Assembly: GCA_963664405.1 (NCBI GenBank)
Contig: OY761158.1
Location: 1,888,001-1,952,000 of the forward strand
From: Thermoanaerobaculia bacterium
Lineage (GTDB): Bacteria; Acidobacteriota; Thermoanaerobaculia; Multivoradales; Multivoraceae
Length of the DNA: 64,000 bases
Direction of reading: 5' to 3'
Shown: positions 3-46,208 of the stretch, one piece after another
Layout: each line of letters starts with the position of its first letter
Numbering within the stretch: position 1 is the stretch's first letter
Translations under genes and position numbers: made by a program
The notes under the pieces: generated by a model
What the model saw: the letters and a program-made list of their open reading frames with translations, nothing else
What the model was told of the DNA's origin: nothing
The model's database searches: none

Positions 3-896
3 CGATATCGGCATCGAGGCCTGCTCGTATACGTCGATTCCGACCCTGTGTTCACGCAAGTCAAATACCAGGTGGACGAGTCCATGCGGAACCGCATCGA
101 TGCTCACGACGTCTTCTTCAGCTTCGGCGAAGCCTTCTCTGAGGCCACTCCGGTGACGCCTCACCAGTGGCTGCCGACGCGCCAGCCCGTCCTCCTCGAT
201 GAGTGGGACACCGACGACACGCCGCCTCGCGACTGCTTTACGACCGTGATGAGTTGGACGAGCTACAAGCCGCTGGAGTTGAGGGGCTGTCGTTATGCTC
301 AAAAAGATGTGGAGTTCTCGAAGTTCCTTGATCTTCCTCGGCGAGTGCCGACTGCTACCCTGGAAGTTGCTCTTGGCGACACTCGGCACGTCGATTGGGA
401 AGGCAAATCGCCGGAGAGCGGTGGCGGCGTTCGAGGCCGTCTCTCGCGCAGCGGCTGGAGGGTCGCGGACGCCATGGATACTTGCGGCACGCTGAACGAC
501 TACAGGCGCTACATTGCTTCGTCGAAAGCGGAGTGGAGCGTCGCCAAGAACGGCTACGTCGTTGGCCGGCCTGGTTGGTTCAGCTGTCGTTCGGCCTGCT
601 ACCTCGCCTCTGGCCGGCCGGTTGCTGTCCAGGAGACAGGGTTCTCGGAGGTGCTGCCCGTGGGCGATGGGATCTTGCCTTTCTCGAATCTCGATGAGGC
701 AGTAACCGCGGTGGAGGAGATCGAGATTCGCTACGAACACCACCAGAAGGCGGCTCGAGAGCTCGCGGCCGGGTACTTCTCGGCCGAGGTCGTCCTCGAG
801 CGGCTCGTGGGCGACGCCTTGAACGCTGCCACCCGCTCGACCATCGCTGAAGCGGGACGCGAGACTGACGAGGTCGGAGTCCGGCCCGATGAGTGA
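3..896 (+). CDS. Glycosyltransferase-like protein (GT-B type), 5' end outside the window
   Basis: The frame is open from base 3 (RYRHRGLLVYVDSDPVFTQ). The C-terminal motif YRRYIASSKAEWSVAKNGYV..GWFSCRSACYLASGRPVAVQETGFS is typical of a conserved GT-like family in polysaccharide loci. Confidence 0.7.
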   Translation, partial: RYRHRGLLVYVDSDPVFTQVKYQVDESMRNRIDAHDVFFSFGEAFSEATPVTPHQWLPTRQPVLLDEWDTDDTPPRDCFTTVMSWTSYKPLELRGCRYAQKDVEFSKFLDLPRRVPTATLEVALGDTRHVDWEGKSPESGGGVRGRLSRSGWRVADAMDTCGTLNDYRRYIASSKAEWSVAKNGYVVGRPGWFSCRSACYLASGRPVAVQETGFSEVLPVGDGILPFSNLDEAVTAVEEIEIRYEHHQKAARELAAGYFSAEVVLERLVGDALNAATRSTIAEAGRETDEVGVRPDE

Positions 897-976
897 CCTG
901 AGCGGGTCCTCGAGGACATGACCAGGCACCGCGTCTGGTTTCGCCGGTCTCGCTGTGTGCACCAGGGTCTAGCGCG

Positions 977-1696
977 TTGACTCTCTGGACCGGGGGCGGC
1001 GCCCAGTGGTGGACGAAGAAGAGCCTCTATGCTTGTCTGAGGTGGTGGGCAAGAGACGCGGTGAACGTCCTGACTTTCGGGCCGGAGGCGCCGAGGTTCG
1101 CCGAGCTCATCTACGTGCCGACGGCCGCCTGTACCGCCGCTCTGAAGCCGTACGTCGGTCACCGTAAGAACTCCGGGAAGGTCATGGAGCCGTCCTGGAC
1201 TCCCGAGATGCAGCCGGTCGAGAGCGTCAGAAAAGTCGAGATATGCCTGCGCCATTGGCGGGAGGGCATGTCTTGGGAGGATGCAGGAGCGTATGAGAAC
1301 GCGGCCCGGAAGATCGCAGAGAAGGGCAATGCAGATTGGTGTACGACTCTCGAGGAGGTGGTCTCGAGATACGAGAACCTCGACAGGGTGTTCGAGGTCG
1401 TGCGAGCGGAGGGAAGGTTGCGCGCTACGGGGCGCGTGGGCGTCAGAGGCGGCCGGGTGCTCGATGGAACACTCGTGCACATAGACGAACGCGGCAACCC
1501 GATCGCTGGTGGCGGCGGATGGCATAGACTCGGCATGGCGCTGGCACTGGACTTACCGGAGTTCCCTGCTCAGATCGGTATGGTTCATCCACAGGCGATT
1601 CCAGAAGCTCAACGGGTATCGCCGAGTGAGTGGGCGACCCAGCGATTGAGATTCACTACGTGCACCTCCACGATCAATTTTGGGAATGACTCGTGA
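977..1696 (+). CDS. Hypothetical protein with a ParB/sulfiredoxin-like C-terminal motif
   Basis: VHIDERGNPIAGGGGWHRLGMALALDLPEFPAQIGMVH resembles the G-x-HRL motif of the ParB/Srx fold. Start codon and last ~30 aa are uncertain (possible frameshift near 1600). Confidence 0.45.
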   Translation: MTLWTGGGAQWWTKKSLYACLRWWARDAVNVLTFGPEAPRFAELIYVPTAACTAALKPYVGHRKNSGKVMEPSWTPEMQPVESVRKVEICLRHWREGMSWEDAGAYENAARKIAEKGNADWCTTLEEVVSRYENLDRVFEVVRAEGRLRATGRVGVRGGRVLDGTLVHIDERGNPIAGGGGWHRLGMALALDLPEFPAQIGMVHPQAIPEAQRVSPSEWATQRLRFTTCTSTINFGNDS

Positions 1697-2122
1697 GTAT
1701 TTCCTAGGTGTCGCCGACCGAGCGGATCTCGTGCTCAGCGAGAAGCCATCGTGGCTTCTCCGAGATCCTGCCCGTAGGGGGTGGGTGAGCACTCCCCAGG
1801 CGAAGGAGAAGATGATGTTGGTTTCTTGCTGATCCCAGCGCCCGAGGAAGCTCTCTGCTACCTCCTGGCGATCGCGGATGAGATGCACATAGAACGCCTC
1901 AGACCCGTATCGCTCCTCTAGGTCGCCTAGGAACCAAGAGAGGCGATTGTCGACCTCGACGTGGTTGTCGGGGTACTCCAGAGCCCCGTACCGGCTCGAG
2001 CCGCGTGGTCCCGCTCCGCGCCGCTGGCTCTCGTGAGACGCCGTGTAGTTGCGAATGCCTTGGCATGCTCTTACAAAGGTCGTCGAGCCGCAGCGCCCGG
2101 TGGAGAGGACGAATACATTCAT
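1553..2122 (-). pseudogene. Sulfotransferase-family protein, apparently truncated after ~115 aa
   Basis: Starts MNVFVLSTGRCGSTTF (PAPS 5'-phosphosulfate loop) and contains YVHLIRD (3'-phosphate motif). Below ~1775 the translation stops looking protein-like and overlaps the convergent gene. Confidence 0.55.
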
Positions 2123-2245
2123 GGCGCTGTGTCTCGTTCCGTAGTCACCGAGTGGAAGCCGAGACCCTCCTGCGACGCAGCAGGGCTCCGCCAACCGTTA
2201 AGATGCATTCGCTCATGATAGGACAACAACGTGCACCCTGAGGCC

Positions 2246-3412
2246 ATGTCGAATCGTCTCGTCAGCATCATTGTCAACAACTTCAACTACGAGCGGTTCT
2301 TAGGAGAGGCGATCGCAAGCGCTCTCAGTCAGACCTACGAGCCAAAGGAAGTGCTCGTTGTCGACGACGGTTCAACAGATGGCTCGCTTGATGTCATCTC
2401 GAGCTTTGGGGCGAGCGTCAAGCCGATCTTCAAGACCAACGAGGGTCAGGCTTCTACCTTCAACGCCGGCTTCGAGGCCTCTAAGGGAGAAGTGATCATC
2501 TTTCTCGATGCTGACGACCTCTTACTTCCCGAGGCGGCCATGCACGCTGTTCGTGTGCTCGAAGAGCCTGACGTCGTCAAGGTCCATTGGCCGATGTGGG
2601 AGATCGACGAAAACGGCAACAACACCCGGAGGTTTCACAAGAAGTCTCTGATCGATGGGGACTACCGCGAGGAGTTCATCGCTCGCGGCCCCATCGCGTT
2701 GTCTCAGTCACCCACGAGCGGTAACGCCTGGCCGAGATGGTTCCTAGAGAAGGCCATGCCCTTGCCAGAGCACGAGGATCGTCACGGTGCGGATGGATTT
2801 CTCAAGAAGCTCTGCCCGATTTATGGGCCGATCCGGCGTCTCGAGATACCTCTTGGTTGCTATCGTCTACATGCCGGGAACTACGGTGGTGGTAGCGGCA
2901 CCTTCTTCAAGTTGCGGCGCTCACTTCGCCGCTACCCGGCTTACTGTCGCCTTCTCGAAGACCACTTGCGGCGAACGGGAGTTGACGCCGACTCGGCGGC
3001 TTGGATGGGCCCTGGTAGTTCCTTCGAATGGCTGGAGATGGCGGTTGAGCTTTTCGACGAGCTCGAGCGATTGGTCCCTCAGGACGCAGAAGTGGTACTG
3101 ATCGACAACGGCAAGTTCGGGTCCGAATTACTACCCGGACGAGAGCTAAGACCCTTAGTTCGGGGCAGCGATAGGATCTGGGGATCGTCTCCTGAAAGTG
3201 ACGAGCAAGCTGTAAGGGAGCTCGAGCGTGCGATCGATGCGGGGGCGCAATATCTGGCGTTTGCGTTTCCGGCGTTCTGGTGGCGCGAGTCGTTCCCGCA
3301 CCTTCTTCGCCAGGTCGAATCTCGCTTTGAACGCCTGTGTGCGAACGAGCGGCTCGTCCTCTTCGACCTCGAAGCCAACGCGACGGATGGTGTAGAAGGC
3401 GGCGGCCGATGA
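2246..3412 (+). CDS. GT2 family glycosyltransferase with an extra C-terminal domain
   Basis: LVSIIVNNFNYERFLGEAIASALSQTY, VVDDGSTDGS and FLDADD (DxD) motifs. Confidence 0.9.
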   Translation: MSNRLVSIIVNNFNYERFLGEAIASALSQTYEPKEVLVVDDGSTDGSLDVISSFGASVKPIFKTNEGQASTFNAGFEASKGEVIIFLDADDLLLPEAAMHAVRVLEEPDVVKVHWPMWEIDENGNNTRRFHKKSLIDGDYREEFIARGPIALSQSPTSGNAWPRWFLEKAMPLPEHEDRHGADGFLKKLCPIYGPIRRLEIPLGCYRLHAGNYGGGSGTFFKLRRSLRRYPAYCRLLEDHLRRTGVDADSAAWMGPGSSFEWLEMAVELFDELERLVPQDAEVVLIDNGKFGSELLPGRELRPLVRGSDRIWGSSPESDEQAVRELERAIDAGAQYLAFAFPAFWWRESFPHLLRQVESRFERLCANERLVLFDLEANATDGVEGGGR

Positions 3413-4401
3413 AGAAGGTGGAGATCCGATTCGCCAAGTCCTTTGACGATCCATCGTTGTCACCCGAGATATGGACTCGCCTGCTCAGTCAGGGCTCGAC
3501 GAATGTGTGTGCGATGACGCGGACGGCCCAACGCCTGTGGTGGGAAGCGAATGAAAGAAAGGGCGATCTAAAGCTGCTTGTAGCTCTTCGCGGCGGAGAG
3601 CCGGTGACGATCGCGCCAATGTTCGTGCAAGGAGGAATGGCATTCAATCTGTGCCCAGTTAGTCAACTCGACCTAGTGGGCGACGTCGAGGATCTGGAAG
3701 TTGCTAGGGCCATTCTCGAAGCTCTTCGAGACTCGACGCCGGAGTTCGCGGGGGTTCGCCTCTATTTCGTTCCCGACACATCCCCCACCGGGTGCGTCAT
3801 GGGACAAGCAGCAGCGGATCTCGCCCTCACCTGGCAACTCGAAGACGAGTTGCCGGCCCCCTACATCGACATGAAGGCCAACCCTGACATGGCGCTGGCG
3901 AGCTCGCGAAAGAAGACGGTCCTCCGTCGGGAGAACTACCTGCGACGGGAAGGCAGCCTCGAAGTGCACCACTACTCCGACGCTGACGAGATCCTTCCCC
4001 AACTCGATTCTTTCTACCAACAGCACGTTTCGAGATGGGCCGAAACTGAGACACCCAGTCGGTTCCGCGAAGAACGAGAACGACGGCGGTTTCGTGTGCG
4101 TATGCGAGAGCTGAGTAGGCTTGGTTACCAGCGTTTCTCACGACTTGATTGGAACGGCCGACCCATCGCCTACCACGAGGGTGTCGCGTATCAAGGGCGC
4201 TTCGAGTACGGAAAAACCTCGTACGAGATCGAGCTGGCGCACGCTTCACCCGGGGCAGTGCTGCTCCGCCATCTCATTCTTTCGGCCATCGCTGAGGGGG
4301 CTTCCGTTTTCGATCTCGGACCCGGAGCAGAGGACTACAAATTCAGGTACACGAAGGACTTCGTCACGCTGCAGACCTGGGCTGCCTACCCACGGGGCTA
4401 G
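3409..4401 (+). CDS. GNAT-family acyltransferase (CelD/BcsL-like, Acetyltransf_6)
   Basis: ATGA overlap with the GT2 stop. C-terminal SPGAVLLRHLILSAIAEGASVFDLGPGAEDYKFRY motif. Confidence 0.85.
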   Translation: MKKVEIRFAKSFDDPSLSPEIWTRLLSQGSTNVCAMTRTAQRLWWEANERKGDLKLLVALRGGEPVTIAPMFVQGGMAFNLCPVSQLDLVGDVEDLEVARAILEALRDSTPEFAGVRLYFVPDTSPTGCVMGQAAADLALTWQLEDELPAPYIDMKANPDMALASSRKKTVLRRENYLRREGSLEVHHYSDADEILPQLDSFYQQHVSRWAETETPSRFREERERRRFRVRMRELSRLGYQRFSRLDWNGRPIAYHEGVAYQGRFEYGKTSYEIELAHASPGAVLLRHLILSAIAEGASVFDLGPGAEDYKFRYTKDFVTLQTWAAYPRG

Positions 4402-42155: not shown

Positions 42156-42553
42156 CCCGTGAGCTCGGGGAGAGATAGAGTGAGTGTCAACTTATGTTGA
42201 TGGCTGCGAGAAAGCGCATCCCGTTGGCTGCGAGCGCAGTTTCCGGGATGGAGTGAGCTGAGGGCTTCGCGACCGCGGGAAAGCTAGGCCTTCTTCAGGA
42301 AGGGCGGCATCATCCCGCCGGAACGGCGGTCCGGGTGCGTGGTCCCGGCGGCGTGTTTGCGGTCGGAAGAGATGCGTGAGTCGGTGTAGGGCTTTGCAGT
42401 GCGGGCTCTGCTCTGATAGAGCAGGCCGACCAGAGACGGCGAGAGCCCGGGAAAGCGAAGTAGAAAACGCCCCGGGCTCTGCCCCAAACCGCAGCATTAG
42501 CTGCGCTTGCAGTATGGCAGAGAGTCGGGGTCGTCGTCGAATGGGAGGCGACG

Positions 42554-42949
42554 ATGCGACCGGACTACCGACTCTTCGACTGTGCTCGATGCCGTCGGCG
42601 TATCTCGCTGTGCTCGCACTGTGACCGTGGCCAGCGTTACTGCCGGGCTTGTGCTCTGGTGGCTCGTCGGGAATCGACTCGGGCGGCCGGCCATCGGTAC
42701 CAGCGAAGCCTCCGAGGTCGGCATTGTCATGCCGCCCGTCAGGCCCGCTACCGTCGGCGCCAGCGCGAGCGGGCAGAGAAAGTGACGCATCAGGGTACCC
42801 CAGGCGGTACTTCGGGGAGGACACTGTGTCGGATCGAGACTCCGAGGCGCGAAGTGCGCTACGACCCGAGGAATCCGCGATGCATGCAGTGTGGAGAGGC
42901 CTGCCGAGAGTTTGTGCGAACGAGCTTTCGTCGTTGCCGACGGAGATAG
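42554..42949 (+). CDS. IS-borne Cys-rich basic protein (putative zinc-binding)
   Basis: GGGAGG RBS; CARC-x6-CSHC-x6-CRAC, an Arg-rich helix and CMQC; ends 4 bp before istA. Confidence 0.7.
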   Translation: MRPDYRLFDCARCRRRISLCSHCDRGQRYCRACALVARRESTRAAGHRYQRSLRGRHCHAARQARYRRRQRERAEKVTHQGTPGGTSGRTLCRIETPRREVRYDPRNPRCMQCGEACREFVRTSFRRCRRR

Positions 42950-42953
42950 GGGC

Positions 42954-44462
42954 GTGATCGACGCACAGCTGCGCGGGGAGATCCGTCGTCTGTTCCTGGT
43001 CGAGAAGTGGAAAGTCGGCACGATCGCTCGACAGCTACAGCTGCACCCCTCAACCGTGCGCCGGGCGCTGGAGAAGTCCGGCGTGCTACCCCAGCAGCGA
43101 CGAGGGAGGATGATCGATCCTTACCTGCCGTTCATCGAGCAGGTGCTCGGGACCTACCCACGACTGCCGGCGAGCCGTCTCTACACCATGGTGGTGGAGC
43201 GCGGCTATCCAGGAGGCCCGGATCAGTTTCGCCACCTGGTGGCCTCGATGCGACCGAAGCCCCAGCGCGAGGCGTTTCTCTCGCTGCGCATGCTGCCAGG
43301 AGAGCAGGCGCAGGTCGACTGGGGCCACTTCGGTCGGCTCCGCGTCGGCCGGGCACATCGTCGGCTCTATGCCTTCGTCTTCGTGCTGTCGTTCTCGCGC
43401 ACGGTCTTCGTGCACTTCACCCTCGACACTCGTCTCGAAACCTTCTTGCACGCTCACCAGCTGGCCTTCCACTACGTCGACGGCGTCGTCAGGACCGTTC
43501 TGTACGACAACCTGCGAACCGCGGTGATCGAGCGGCAGGGAACCGCGGTGCGCTTCCATCCCGTGCTGCTCGATTTCGCCAGCCACTACGGCTTCCTTCC
43601 CACCGTCGCCGCGGTGGCTCGGGGAAATGAGAAAGGCCGCGTCGAGCGCGCAATCCGCTTCCTGCGAAGCTCGTTCTTCGGCGCCCGAACGGTGAGCGAT
43701 TTGGATCGTCTGAATCGGCAGGTCCTGGAATGGTGCCAGAGGTCGCAGCGCAGACCCTGGCCGCAGGACCGACAGCGAACCGTGAAAAGCGCCCTGGCCC
43801 AGGAACGACCTCGACTGCTTGAGCTTCCCGGAGACGACTTCGAAACCGACCTGCGACTGGAGATCAAGGTCAGAAAGACGCCGATCGTGCGCTTCGACCT
43901 CAACGACTACTCGGTGCCGCACAGTCATGTGCAGAGGACCGTCACGCTCCTCGCCAGCGAGCATCGGGTGCGGATCCTCGATGGCCAGGAGCTCCTCGCC
44001 GAGCACCCTCGCTCGTACTCCCGGGGCGAGCAGATCCTCGATCCTCAACACCTCGAGGAGCTCCTCGCTCACAAACGCAGGGCCCGACGACACCGGGGCT
44101 TCCATCGGCTGTTTTCCGCTGTGCCTCGATGCGAAGAGCTGATGCAGCAGCTCGCCGAGCGAGGCGAGAACCTCGGAACGCAGACCGCCGGCCTGCTCCG
44201 ACTCCTGCGCCAGTACGGCCCCCAGCGACTCGACAAAGCCGTGCGCGAAGCGCTCCTGAACCACGCACCGCGATTCCAGTCCGTCCGGCTCCTACTCGAA
44301 CGGCACCAGCGCGGCCTCGGTCAGCCCCCGGCTTTACCGGTGCCGCTCAGCCAGGAGCTCCAACAGCGAGATCTCTCCGTGAGACCGCACAACCTCGAGG
44401 ACTACGACCAACTTGGAGGCAACGACGATGGCCCGACCCAGGAAGAGTCCAACGATCCCTGA
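42954..44462 (+). CDS. istA: IS21-family DDE transposase
   Basis: N-terminal HTH (TIARQLQLHPSTVRRAL), PGEQAQVDWG, LYDNL, KGRVER and NDYSVP motifs. Confidence 0.95.
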   Translation: MIDAQLRGEIRRLFLVEKWKVGTIARQLQLHPSTVRRALEKSGVLPQQRRGRMIDPYLPFIEQVLGTYPRLPASRLYTMVVERGYPGGPDQFRHLVASMRPKPQREAFLSLRMLPGEQAQVDWGHFGRLRVGRAHRRLYAFVFVLSFSRTVFVHFTLDTRLETFLHAHQLAFHYVDGVVRTVLYDNLRTAVIERQGTAVRFHPVLLDFASHYGFLPTVAAVARGNEKGRVERAIRFLRSSFFGARTVSDLDRLNRQVLEWCQRSQRRPWPQDRQRTVKSALAQERPRLLELPGDDFETDLRLEIKVRKTPIVRFDLNDYSVPHSHVQRTVTLLASEHRVRILDGQELLAEHPRSYSRGEQILDPQHLEELLAHKRRARRHRGFHRLFSAVPRCEELMQQLAERGENLGTQTAGLLRLLRQYGPQRLDKAVREALLNHAPRFQSVRLLLERHQRGLGQPPALPVPLSQELQQRDLSVRPHNLEDYDQLGGNDDGPTQEESNDP

Positions 44463-45222
44463 CGAACCACTACGAGAGCTCGCCCGATCCCTCGGCTTCT
44501 ACGCCCTCGTCGACGACTGGGGCACCTACCGAGAACAGCCCTGGCTCGAACAGCTGCTGCGCAAAGAAGAGGCCGAGCGCAAACGGCGCAGCCTCGAACG
44601 GCGCATCCGCACCAGCCGCGTCGGGCTCTTCAAGAGCATCGCCGACTTCGACTTCTCCTGGCCCCAGCGCATCGACCGCGAGCAGATCCAGGATCTGCTC
44701 ACCCTCCAATTCCTCGACGACATCACCAACGTCATCCTCCTCGGACCCAACGGTGTCGGCAAGACCATGATTGCCAAGAACCTCCTCTACCAGGCGCTGC
44801 AACGAGGGGCCACCGCCAGCTTCGTCACCGCCTCCGACATGCTCAACGATCTCGCCGTCCAGGAAACCCCCTCGGCGCTCCAGAGAAGGCTCTCCAAATA
44901 CACCCGACCCTCGCTTTTGGCAATCGATGAGCTCGGCTATCTCTCCTACGACCACCGCCACGCGGATCTCCTCTTCGAGGTCGTCTCCAGGAGATACGGC
45001 AACAAGCCCATTCTTCTCACCACCAACAAGCCCTTCGCCGAATGGGCCGAGGTCTTTCCCAACGCCTCCTGCGTCGTCACTCTCGTCGATCGACTCACCC
45101 ACCACGCCGAGATCGTCAAGATCGAGGCTAACTCCTATCGCCGCAAGGAGGCCAAGGAGGCTGCTGAAAAAAAGGCCAAGGACCGCGCCAAAAGGCGGAG
45201 CGCAGCACGACGACGCTCATGA
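44428..45222 (+). CDS. istB: IS21-family AAA+ helper ATPase
   Basis: DFDF, GPNGVGKT, LLAIDELGY, TTNKPFAEW, DRLTHHA and SYR motifs. Confidence 0.95.
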   Translation: MARPRKSPTIPDEPLRELARSLGFYALVDDWGTYREQPWLEQLLRKEEAERKRRSLERRIRTSRVGLFKSIADFDFSWPQRIDREQIQDLLTLQFLDDITNVILLGPNGVGKTMIAKNLLYQALQRGATASFVTASDMLNDLAVQETPSALQRRLSKYTRPSLLAIDELGYLSYDHRHADLLFEVVSRRYGNKPILLTTNKPFAEWAEVFPNASCVVTLVDRLTHHAEIVKIEANSYRRKEAKEAAEKKAKDRAKRRSAARRRS

Positions 45223-45575
45223 CCCGAAGCCACTATCGGCGCCAGCTCCTCCGCCTCTATCGACTCCTTCCCGACACCCCGCACCGCTTCCACCACGGCG
45301 ACCGCGTCATCGTCGACCAGCTCTTCGACCAAGACCTGCCTCTCACCGTCCTCCAGGCCGCCCTCCTCCTCGGCTCCGCCCGACGCGCATGCCGAGATCC
45401 GCGCCTACCAAAGCTCCAGCCCATCCGATCCCTCGCCTACTTTCTCCCCATCCTCCGAGAACTCCCCACGACGCCACCCCCCGAGGGGTACCTCGACTAT
45501 CTGCGCCACACCCTGAGTCACGCCTCGCGGGGACAAAAAACCGACTCGCAGCCAACTAAGTGCGCTTTCTCGTAG
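45219..45575 (+). CDS. IS-borne small helical hypothetical protein
   Basis: ATGA-coupled to istB; LYRLLPDTP...AALLLGSARR...PIRSLAYFLPILREL; the stop lies inside the right inverted repeat. Confidence 0.7.
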   Translation: MTRSHYRRQLLRLYRLLPDTPHRFHHGDRVIVDQLFDQDLPLTVLQAALLLGSARRACRDPRLPKLQPIRSLAYFLPILRELPTTPPPEGYLDYLRHTLSHASRGQKTDSQPTKCAFS

Positions 45576-45590
45576 CCGGTAACAACTTAC

Positions 45591-46208
45591 GTGACTCGCT
45601 CATCGAGTACAGAGATCAGTGGGGTGCTCGCGGCCATCCGCGCCGGCAACGAGGGTGCGGTGGATCGTCTGGTGCCCCTCGTCTACGACGAGCTGCGCAA
45701 GCTCGCCGGAACCTTCCTGGCCAACGAGCGTCCGGGACACACCCTCCAGCCCACGGCCCTCGTGCATGAGGCCTATCTGCGCCTCCTCGGCGACGGCCGG
45801 CCTCCGTGGAACGACAAAGCCCACTTCTTCCGAGCCGCGGGGCAGGCGATGCGCCGCATTCTCATCGAGCGAGCGAGAGCGCGGGCGCGCCACAAGCGCG
45901 GTGGCGACTGGCAGAGAGTTTCGCTCGACACAGCCATCGAAGGCGATCTTCCGCGGCCGGAGTCGCTCCTCGACCTCGATCGTGCTCTTTCGCGTCTGGC
46001 GAAAATCGACTCTTCCATGGCAGAAGTGGTCGAGTTGCGCTACTTCGCGGGACTGACAGTTGAGCAGATAGGGAACGCACTCGAGGTGTCGCCCCGCTCG
46101 GTACAGCGGCTGTGGACCGCAGCGCGTGCCTGGCTGCACGCCGAGCTCACACCCTCGGTGCGGCGCGACTCCGATGGCGCATCTCTCGCCGTTTCGTCGC
46201 TTGAGTAG
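45591..46208 (+). CDS. ECF-type sigma factor (kinase-associated, ECF43-like)
   Basis: LVYDELRKLA, TLQPTALVHEAYLRL, AMRRIL, VVELRYFAGL and WTAARAWL motifs. Confidence 0.92.
   Translation: MTRSSSTEISGVLAAIRAGNEGAVDRLVPLVYDELRKLAGTFLANERPGHTLQPTALVHEAYLRLLGDGRPPWNDKAHFFRAAGQAMRRILIERARARARHKRGGDWQRVSLDTAIEGDLPRPESLLDLDRALSRLAKIDSSMAEVVELRYFAGLTVEQIGNALEVSPRSVQRLWTAARAWLHAELTPSVRRDSDGASLAVSSLE
46175..46207 (+). promoter_or_regulatory. Putative ECF promoter TGGC-N19-CGCnT upstream of kinase 1
   Basis: TGGC gcatctctcgccgtttcgt CGCTTGAGTA; same spacing as the sites at 50401..50433 and 61226..61254. Confidence 0.5.

Follow-up and report, generated by a model that had tools for sequence, protein, structure and literature searches.

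A four-gene, translationally coupled IS21-family element in a Thermoanaerobaculia genome belongs to a large and apparently undescribed branch of its family

Canonical insertion sequences (IS) of the IS21 family carry two genes, istA and istB, encoding a DDE transposase and an AAA+ helper ATPase. What, then, is to be made of an IS21-family element with four genes in 3.4 kb? The element lies in a 64,000-nucleotide stretch of the genome of a Thermoanaerobaculia bacterium (phylum Acidobacteriota; assembly GCA_963664405.1, contig OY761158.1, positions 1,888,001 to 1,952,000 of the forward strand). We refer to this whole stretch as the window, and coordinates of the element are window positions. Two small open reading frames (ORFs), ORF1 ahead of istA and ORF4 behind istB, share its inverted repeats. 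A model that saw the sequence alone had proposed that both serve transposition, in targeting or regulation, rather than being cargo (the original prediction). Here we show that the element is an active member of a large IS21 clade whose conserved unit is a coupled operon of four genes inside the repeats. What the two extra proteins do is a matter of graded likelihood, which we take up with the evidence.

The intact element occupies window positions 42195-45584 (3390 bp) and, with its target-site duplications, has the following features.

42190..42194, no strand: left target-site duplication ACTTA, read from the sequence
42195..42234, plus strand: left terminal inverted repeat, beginning TG (repeat pair of 40 nt, 80% complementary)
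42235..42553, plus strand: non-coding leader with strong hairpins (for example 42443-42483), from folding z-scores
42554..42949, plus strand: ORF1, 131 amino acids, basic, first gene of the operon (homologues, invariant CxxC pairs)
42954..44462, plus strand: istA, DDE transposase, 502 amino acids from GTG 42954 (NF033546, PF00665 rve, PF22483)
44428..45222, plus strand: istB, AAA+ helper ATPase, 264 amino acids from ATG 44428 (PF01695, NF038214)
45219..45575, plus strand: ORF4, 118 amino acids, basic (homologues, junction conservation, hhalign to the N-terminal domain of the chromosomal protein chrX)
45545..45584, minus strand: right terminal inverted repeat, ending CA (repeat pair with the left end)
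45585..45589, no strand: right target-site duplication ACTTA, read from the sequence

The structure given in the original prediction is borne out throughout: an intact TG...CA element of 3390 bp with inverted repeats of about 40 bp and a 5-bp ACTTA duplication, a 131-residue basic protein with four CxxC pairs ahead of istA, and a 118-residue protein ATGA-coupled to istB with its stop inside the right repeat. Both small ORFs are real genes. All four genes lie on the plus strand within the inverted repeats. IstA matches NF033546 (E 1.2e-72, 245 bits against a cut-off of 160), PF00665 (rve) and PF22483 (Mu-transposase C-terminal domain); its likeliest start is GTG 42954, 4 nt past the ORF1 stop, with an alternative in-frame GTG at 42891. 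IstB matches PF01695 (E 1.8e-62, 211 bits) and NF038214 (E 2.6e-62, 210.6 bits against a cut-off of 200). Because a GGAGG motif precedes ATG 44428, this is more likely its start than TTG 44413, and istA and istB then overlap by 35 nt. The ORF4 start overlaps the istB stop as ATGA, and its TAG stop (45573-45575) falls within the right repeat, 9 nt from the tip of the element, so that the repeat encodes the final 10 codons of ORF4 plus the stop. Each end of the element carries two GGCTGCGAG sub-repeats 24 nt apart, at 42202-42210 and 42226-42234 on the left and, as complements, at 45545-45553 and 45569-45577 on the right, the last with one mismatch.

Much of this is familiar from canonical IS21 elements such as IS21 and IS5376: both proteins score above the NCBIfam curated cut-offs, istA and istB overlap, the TG...CA inverted repeats contain repeated sub-terminal sites of the usual IS21 look, and the duplication of 5 bp lies within the 4-8 bp of the family. 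The differences are that there are two genes in the canonical elements and four here, that the leader is long (273-417 nt among relatives at 13 loci with mappable ends, about six distinct elements), and that IstA falls in a clade separate from four two-gene elements. With four conserved genes inside its repeats the element departs from the two-gene layout, and we therefore class it as a variant clade of the IS21 family.

The source genome is a single 6.78-Mb contig and contains 21 full-length copies of the element, 15 of them identical and six with one or two differences; in one further copy the final 24 nt are missing, another is interrupted by an insertion, and there are several fragments. 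A perfect 5-bp duplication flanks 18 of the 21. At one full copy the duplication is 6 bp long, and at two it is absent, probably through recombination between copies. With this many full and identical copies and perfect duplications, the element is mobile and active at present.

Are the two small ORFs constant parts of such elements? The original prediction had suggested scoring their co-occurrence with istAB, and at the loci examined homologues of both adjoin these genes rather than lying mostly elsewhere. For ORF1 we examined the best 80 genome loci, 75 of which extend at least 600 nt downstream; IstA follows directly in 74, the exception (L093) lying among other transposases. For ORF4 the best 80 of at least 583 metagenome loci were examined, and IstB adjoins it in 72 of the 73 with at least 400 nt upstream. 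ORF1 is found at the expected distance, 2-3.2 kb upstream of ORF4, in 25 of the 34 loci with at least 3 kb upstream, and at least three of the remaining nine are truncated or interrupted elements. The genes are also tightly packed: the ORF4 start and the IstB stop overlap (ATGA or GTGA) in 63 of 66 distinct junctions, and the distance from the ORF1 stop to the IstA start is -20 to +15 nt in most of 82 junctions. Median ratios of nonsynonymous to synonymous substitution rates (dN/dS; rough Nei-Gojobori estimates from pairs with dS of 0.1-1.5) are 0.39 for ORF1, 0.27 for IstA, 0.20 for IstB and 0.22 for ORF4, figures that serve only as a guide because dS is near saturation.

These data dispose of the notion that the small ORFs stay open only by chance in DNA rich in GC. 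Many overlapping spurious frames do exist in this region of 63% GC; against that stand hundreds of homologues, invariant residues, dN/dS of 0.22-0.39, and conservation of both position and coupling, and this explanation, already refuted, has a negligible probability. Since the extra ORFs have been inherited together with istAB across deep divergence, are translationally coupled and are under purifying selection, they are very probably integral accessory genes of the element and not occasional cargo.

The IstA phylogeny leads in the same direction. Our FastTree tree has 84 rows (rows shorter than 440 amino acids, containing stops or duplicated were excluded), including as outgroups three ordinary IS21 elements of the source genome and one from locus L107. 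The tree gives a single clade: all 80 ORF1-linked IstA rows form one group (support 99), with long branches to the four canonical IS21 outgroups. ORF4-bearing elements are basal and paraphyletic within it, and a nested group of 43 rows (support 97) consists of elements without ORF4; as the root is placed by few, long-branch outgroups, the direction of change is tentative. The three ordinary IS21 loci of the source genome have neither ORF1 nor ORF4.

A second four-gene IS21 element, of about 3.3 kb, is present in the same genome in eight copies, none of them in the window (for example 6000077-6003376; L102, about 777-4076). Seven copies have all four genes uninterrupted and one has istA split by an insertion. 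The order is again ORF1, IstA, IstB, ORF4, and istB and ORF4 overlap as GTGA. Nucleotide identity to the window element is about 66-71% and confined to parts of istA and istB. The ORF1 of this second element has one sub-threshold PHROG match (E 0.066).

What kind of protein is ORF4? Its family has the invariant residues D28, R55, R56, S71, Y74, Y91 and Y94. A word-indexed search returned 30 homologues down to 43% identity, and a profile reached 1656 50%-cluster representatives at E up to 1e-3 (902 at 1e-10), nearly all of 100-150 amino acids; the median isoelectric point (pI) of the family is 9.6, and its longer representatives contain no Pfam domain and appear to be over-extended starts. Neither Pfam nor NCBIfam (E up to 1) nor PHROG or PADLOC (E up to 0.1) has a match to ORF4. 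Weak Pfam matches that recur among family members, RepB_primase_C in 14 of 113 and RecX_HTH2 in 9 of 113, are leads only. The RecX resemblance was rejected as evidence: hhalign against the RecX alignment gives 15% over 27 columns, and the best Pfam E value, 0.005, is below significance.

The relatives of ORF4 were found on the chromosome. Its profile matched 50 of 401 Acidobacteriota genomes (a tally that includes one unpublished genome, G049), partly with strong and often multi-copy matches, which are IS copies, and partly with weak single-copy matches (E 1e-12 to 1e-6). The latter occur in all nine genomes of the window's family and in most of its order, and correspond to a conserved chromosomal protein of about 220-240 amino acids, which we call chrX. 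The seven chrX clusters looked up come from Thermoanaerobaculia or Acidobacteriota, and every one of them is annotated 'hypothetical'. In the source genome chrX is encoded at 6684136-6684804 on the minus strand (L270:8136-8804), downstream of birA and coaX. By profile alignment of the ORF4 family to the helical N-terminal domain of chrX (chrX-N, about 85 amino acids; hhalign 98.9%, E 1.9e-17, 78 columns), ORF4 is homologous to that domain. At the C-terminus of chrX, most of 27 aligned sequences share the motif L-P-x-L-(S/T)-L-(F/L), which in appearance resembles the beta-clamp-binding pentapeptide QL[SD]LF; chrX may be an unrecognised replication-linked factor of Thermoanaerobaculia. ORF4 has neither the C-terminal half of chrX nor its motif.

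From chrX a second connection leads to phages. A tblastn search with chrX against 50,697 phage records gave five matches, four of them the same gene of Brevibacillus phages Jimmer1 and Jimmer2 (two records each; E 0.09), annotated 'DnaD-like helicase loader' or 'replication protein O'. The fifth, a weak one (E 9), is a gene of Geobacillus phage PK5.2 annotated as a transcriptional regulator. The chrX-N profile matches Jimmer1 gp77 at about residues 216-294 (54.6 bits; hhalign 97.6%), and the ORF4 family compared with the same region directly gives hhalign 50% (E 1.6e-4). At the profile level the link between chrX-N and the gp77 C-terminal domain is solid; the step from ORF4, through chrX, to the C-terminal domain of phage replication organisers is partly supported by these alignments. 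Searches of PDB sequences with the ORF4 and chrX-N profiles gave nothing significant.

The gene neighbourhood in the phages has a parallel in the element. Residues 6-98 of Jimmer1 gp77 form a Phage_rep_O domain, no Pfam model covers its ORF4-matching C-terminal part, and the next gene, gp78, encodes an IstB_IS21/DnaI_N protein (PF01695 at 1e-16). The gp77 C-terminal domain recurs in eight phage records. In phiOH2 (gp42/gp41) the next gene is annotated, in the annotator's note, as an IstB-domain DnaC-like loader. In the phage modules, as in the element, an ORF4-type domain is encoded beside a PF01695-type ATPase. The element differs in that its ORF4 domain stands alone, without the N-terminal origin-binding Phage_rep_O domain, and in that ORF4 follows the ATPase gene whereas the phage organiser gene precedes it; the direct ORF4-gp77 alignment is also limited to hhalign 50%. 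The original prediction had seen in ORF4 a loose likeness to DnaD-like helical domains, which partner DnaC/IstB-like ATPases. This hunch survives in part: ORF4 is homologous to a chrX domain that matches the C-terminal domain of an organiser annotated as DnaD-like, but PF07261 (DnaB_2) does not match it. PF07261 matches in another Acidobacteriota family look like NusA N-termini, with nothing in hhalign, and were rejected.

For ORF1 no comparable relatives were found. Its CxxC pairs lie at residues 10-13, 20-23, 30-33 and 110-113; the eight cysteines (C10, C13, C20, C23, C30, C33, C110 and C113) are invariant, the first six spaced CxxC-x6-CxxC-x6-CxxC, as are residues Y49, G55, H59, Q63, T78 and H79 of a basic core. 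These cysteines would be enough for two putative zinc sites, and the arginine-rich centre is probably helical. The pI is about 11.5 (family median 11.1). There are 236 homologues, and 402 tblastn-confirmed stretches in one-genome-per-species contigs span, by record titles, Acidobacteriota, Beta-, Gamma- and Alphaproteobacteria, Planctomycetota, Polyangiaceae, Limisphaerales and others. The search turned up no chromosomal homologue: none of the nine genomes of the window's family matched, and across the Acidobacteriota 26 of 401 genomes did, many in multiple copies. Pfam, NCBIfam, PHROG and PADLOC, searched at the same E limits as for ORF4, gave no match to ORF1, and for both ORF1 and ORF4 the ESM Atlas returned only unnamed clusters. 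Against PDB sequences the ORF1 profile gave nothing significant, the Leu3 Zn2Cys6 domain being sub-threshold at E 0.55. Assignment to a known zinc-ribbon or Zn2Cys6 family was accordingly rejected, all such matches being sub-threshold; the family's sub-threshold Pfam resemblances are to Rhodanese_C (21 of 63 members, best E 0.0065) and NinG (4 of 63).

Small first ORFs are known from other elements: InsA of IS1 and OrfA of the IS3 family are small DNA-binding proteins that regulate transposition. ORF1 resembles them as a small, basic, zinc-motif first gene tightly coupled upstream of the transposase. It differs in that no similarity to them was detected and no fusion to the transposase was found, the longer ORF1 proteins being only forms of 231-274 amino acids. 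Nor does ORF1 keep one fixed frame relative to IstA across the related elements, which leaves no uniform frameshift signal.

Ahead of ORF1, the leader spans 359 nt of non-coding sequence with the left repeat included (42195-42553). No sigma-70-like promoter was found in it, and Rfam has no match on the element. Its folding, measured against shuffled sequences, gives z-scores of -2.3 on the plus and -3.4 on the minus strand. In relatives of a soil clade a leader hairpin is conserved, with compensatory changes at 7 of 10 pairs (loci L107-L177, alignment columns 177-207), and may be a regulatory RNA or a site where protein binds; repeated ATCATC motifs lie near it. Elsewhere in the source genome, a mini-element of about 590 bp (1147739-1148331; L103:4739-5331) has an intact ORF1-like gene of 150 amino acids as its only gene, and its ends resemble those of the second IS21 element.

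Such features invite the explanation that the two small proteins are negative regulators of copy number, ORF1, after the fashion of InsA or OrfA, as a repressor or competitor of the transposase acting at the ends or leader, and ORF4 as a brake on oligomerisation of the ATPase. ORF1 is indeed a first gene, small, very basic and putatively zinc-binding, the leader is long and structured, and the mini-element retains only ORF1 between its IS-like ends. RecX is a known filament inhibitor, and its three-helix repeats are what 9 of the 113 ORF4-family members weakly match. This last resemblance is the one found below significance, however, and 21 or more copies hardly speak of tight repression; the ATGA coupling means co-production with IstB, and this fits a partner no less well than it fits a brake. 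We regard negative regulation, which with cargo is one of the two main rival explanations, as unlikely.

The fourth position of the operon is not always held by ORF4. In the nested, mostly proteobacterial group an unrelated acidic protein of 67-78 amino acids (pI 4.6) is coupled to the istB stop, in 23 distinct sequences (loci L024-L096, for example L042:8678-8893 and L024:2965-3189); hhalign finds no homology between it and ORF4. It ends in acidic residues followed by (P/L/I/V)PF in 21 of the 23, and the source genome's own single-stranded DNA-binding protein (SSB) ends in DDDDIPF, like these tails. In RefSeq its gene is called 'hypothetical protein', and ORF1 is unannotated or annotated on the wrong strand. 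One proteobacterial relative of the element lies on a plasmid of Methylotuvimicrobium alcaliphilum 20Z.

Nor is the ORF4 family restricted to IS21. A third transposon of the source genome, of 3556 bp and with five copies (for example 537655-541223; L101), has ends of the form TGAGAGTGATCA... and a target duplication of 5 bp, TCCGG. Its genes code for a Cys/HTH_23 protein, an IS481-like rve transposase (below cut-off), an AAA_22 ATPase and a protein that is ORF4-like, being 33% identical to ORF4; the gene for this last protein overlaps the end of the ATPase gene. The ORF4-like gene is absent from all five loci related to this transposon (35-58% ATPase identity), and no homology was found between ORF1 and its Cys/HTH first protein. 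Together with the exchangeable fourth position, this transposon indicates that ORF4 is a portable module that tends to follow transposon AAA+ ATPases and is not a part obligately tied to IstB.

Both observations, along with a conserved chromosomal homologue (chrX) that has its own non-mobile role, can be read as favouring selfish cargo: genes that help the element or its host in ways unrelated to the chemistry of transposition, for example in coping with host replication, SOS or defence, and kept because they lie inside the repeats. To this may be opposed that ORF1 was seen only in mobile, multi-copy settings and adjoins IstA at all but one locus, that the start-stop overlap with IstB is near-universal, and that PADLOC and PHROG hold no matches. 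On balance we find cargo quite unlikely.

Could ORF1, ORF4 or both choose the target? The original prediction had pointed to the zinc-binding TniQ/TnsD proteins, and a transposase, an AAA+ ATPase and a small factor do recall the layout of Tn7- and Tn5053-type systems; the clamp-peptide-like end of chrX would suit a fork-directed selector of the TnsE kind. The insertion sites tell otherwise. The 18 reconstructed empty sites favour no base at any position, their GC content of 0.66 is ordinary beside the 0.63 ± 0.02 of random sites, and the target duplications all differ from each other. No bias of orientation relative to replication was seen (14 of 23 copies co-oriented, p 0.41), with origin and terminus derived from cumulative GC skew only. 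There is no sign of target specificity in the element, nor of either extra protein picking a specific target sequence. The lack of both consensus and orientation bias makes a TniQ-, TnsD- or TnsE-like selector unlikely; besides, neither ORF1 nor ORF4 has a Pfam match at E up to 1, the TniQ model included, TniQ is far larger than these proteins of 118-131 amino acids, and the C-terminal half of chrX, with its motif, is missing from ORF4. What the element shares with Tn7, Tn5053 and Mu-type DDE and AAA+ systems is that small element-encoded proteins accompany a transposase and an AAA+ regulator, without sequence similarity and without a site or orientation preference. We consider a target selector very improbable, and the targeting claim is not supported.

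The skew curve is lowest at 2.74 Mb and highest at 6.76 Mb and so implies unequal replichores of 4.0 and 2.8 Mb, possibly a result of IS-mediated rearrangement.

Some individual copies carry lesions. Those at 449310-452700 and 2716753-2720143 share a 1-nt insertion in ORF4 (element position 3291) that frameshifts the last 30 codons; as both have their own target duplications, the variant with a broken ORF4 either moved or was converted. The copy at 2646767-2650158 has two 1-nt insertions within istA, and the one at 6339246-6345987 is split at element position 1438-1443 by an insertion of about 3.35 kb with a 6-bp duplication. Outside the source genome, three copies with identical ORF1 and ORF4 occur in a genome assigned to a different family of the phylum (G164, contig C5; loci L021-L023, L187, L224), one of them adjoined by a 99% identical copy of the third transposon; these are either a recent horizontal transfer or a binning artefact. 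ORF4 was found on no plasmid of PLSDB. One 247-nt contig in one metatranscriptome matches part of istB exactly, and the remaining RNA contigs are diverged IstB motifs of other organisms; none of the metatranscriptome contigs found bears on ORF1 or ORF4.

How might the four proteins act together? IstA and IstB would transpose the element as in canonical IS21: IstB oligomers would bend the target DNA and recruit and activate the IstA synaptic complex. ORF4, produced in step with IstB through the ATGA overlap, may act on or beside this DnaC-like ATPase and, by analogy with organiser-loader pairs, either aid the assembly of IstB on DNA or pass the strand-transfer product to host replication or repair. 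ORF1 is envisaged as a nucleic-acid binder that would use its zinc sites and arginine-rich centre at the element ends or at the structured leader, as DNA or RNA; it would control expression or help IstA to recognise the ends. The SSB-tail protein in the same position of the sister clade would fit a link to the host replisome. Such a mechanism, with ORF1 and ORF4 as positive partners, is a serious candidate that in our estimate stops somewhat short of being probable. For the explanation as a whole, a four-gene clade in which ORF1 and ORF4 have partner roles, our confidence is modest and just on the favourable side.

A bolder version goes further. The clade may have kept or re-created an organiser-loader pair within a transposon, with ORF4, as a minimal replisome-organiser domain, and the DnaC-like IstB coupling strand transfer to the host replisome or to restart, the SSB-tail mimic an equivalent solution, chrX a so far unrecognised replication factor, clamp-linked and of the same domain family, and ORF1 a new zinc-binding, nucleic-acid-binding partner of IstA. 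We think this doubtful.

Several points weigh against partner roles of this kind. Canonical IS21 has been reconstituted with IstA and IstB alone (PMC11208146), so the extra proteins are not needed by the IS21 family in general. ORF4 is evolutionarily dispensable, since an unrelated acidic protein replaces it in the nested clade, and the ORF4-like gene behind a non-IstB AAA_22 ATPase in the third transposon argues against an IstB-specific contact. The tree on which these relations are drawn is tentative, being from FastTree only and having four long-branch outgroups. The phage-organiser link draws on few lineages, eight records in all, and one of the three inspected, phage CBP1, is without an adjacent loader. 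Finally, PF07261 matches neither ORF4 nor 113 members of its family (for these, among the 25 of 30 Pfam families listed) nor three chrX proteins scanned, and a genome-wide search with it left both ORF4 and chrX unmatched. We infer the functions of ORF1 and ORF4, the role in transposition included, from sequence comparison; of the claim that they are transposition machinery rather than cargo, what stands is that they are co-inherited, coupled and selected parts of the element.

At the locus in the window, the GTG start (45591) of a gene for an extracytoplasmic function (ECF)-type sigma factor (window 45585-46208) comes 6 nt beyond the element's right end, followed by a Ser/Thr kinase with tetratricopeptide (TPR) repeats. 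The insertion may have altered expression of the sigma factor.

The four-gene layout appears to define a large and undescribed branch of the IS21 family. Neither extra conserved IS21 genes nor a DnaD-IstB transposon link was found in the full-text literature as represented by listings and abstracts, and to that extent the original prediction of an undescribed system is upheld; ISfinder or supplementary files may list 'other ORFs'. Annotation pipelines reduce such elements to istAB, and the three uncharacterised protein families that here receive a context, ORF1, ORF4/chrX-N and the SSB-tail protein, are missed or called hypothetical.

IS21, the current structural model for AAA+ control of DDE transposases, is regarded as a system of two proteins. 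In a large natural branch of the family two more conserved proteins are encoded, and this branch has hundreds of loci across Acidobacteriota, Pseudomonadota, Planctomycetota and further phyla. A domain of ORF4 shared with phage organisers would bear on the functional relation between IstB and helicase loaders, and on the handover of strand-transfer products to host replication or repair. If true, the organiser-loader interpretation would make this element a direct link between helicase loading and AAA+-assisted transposition.

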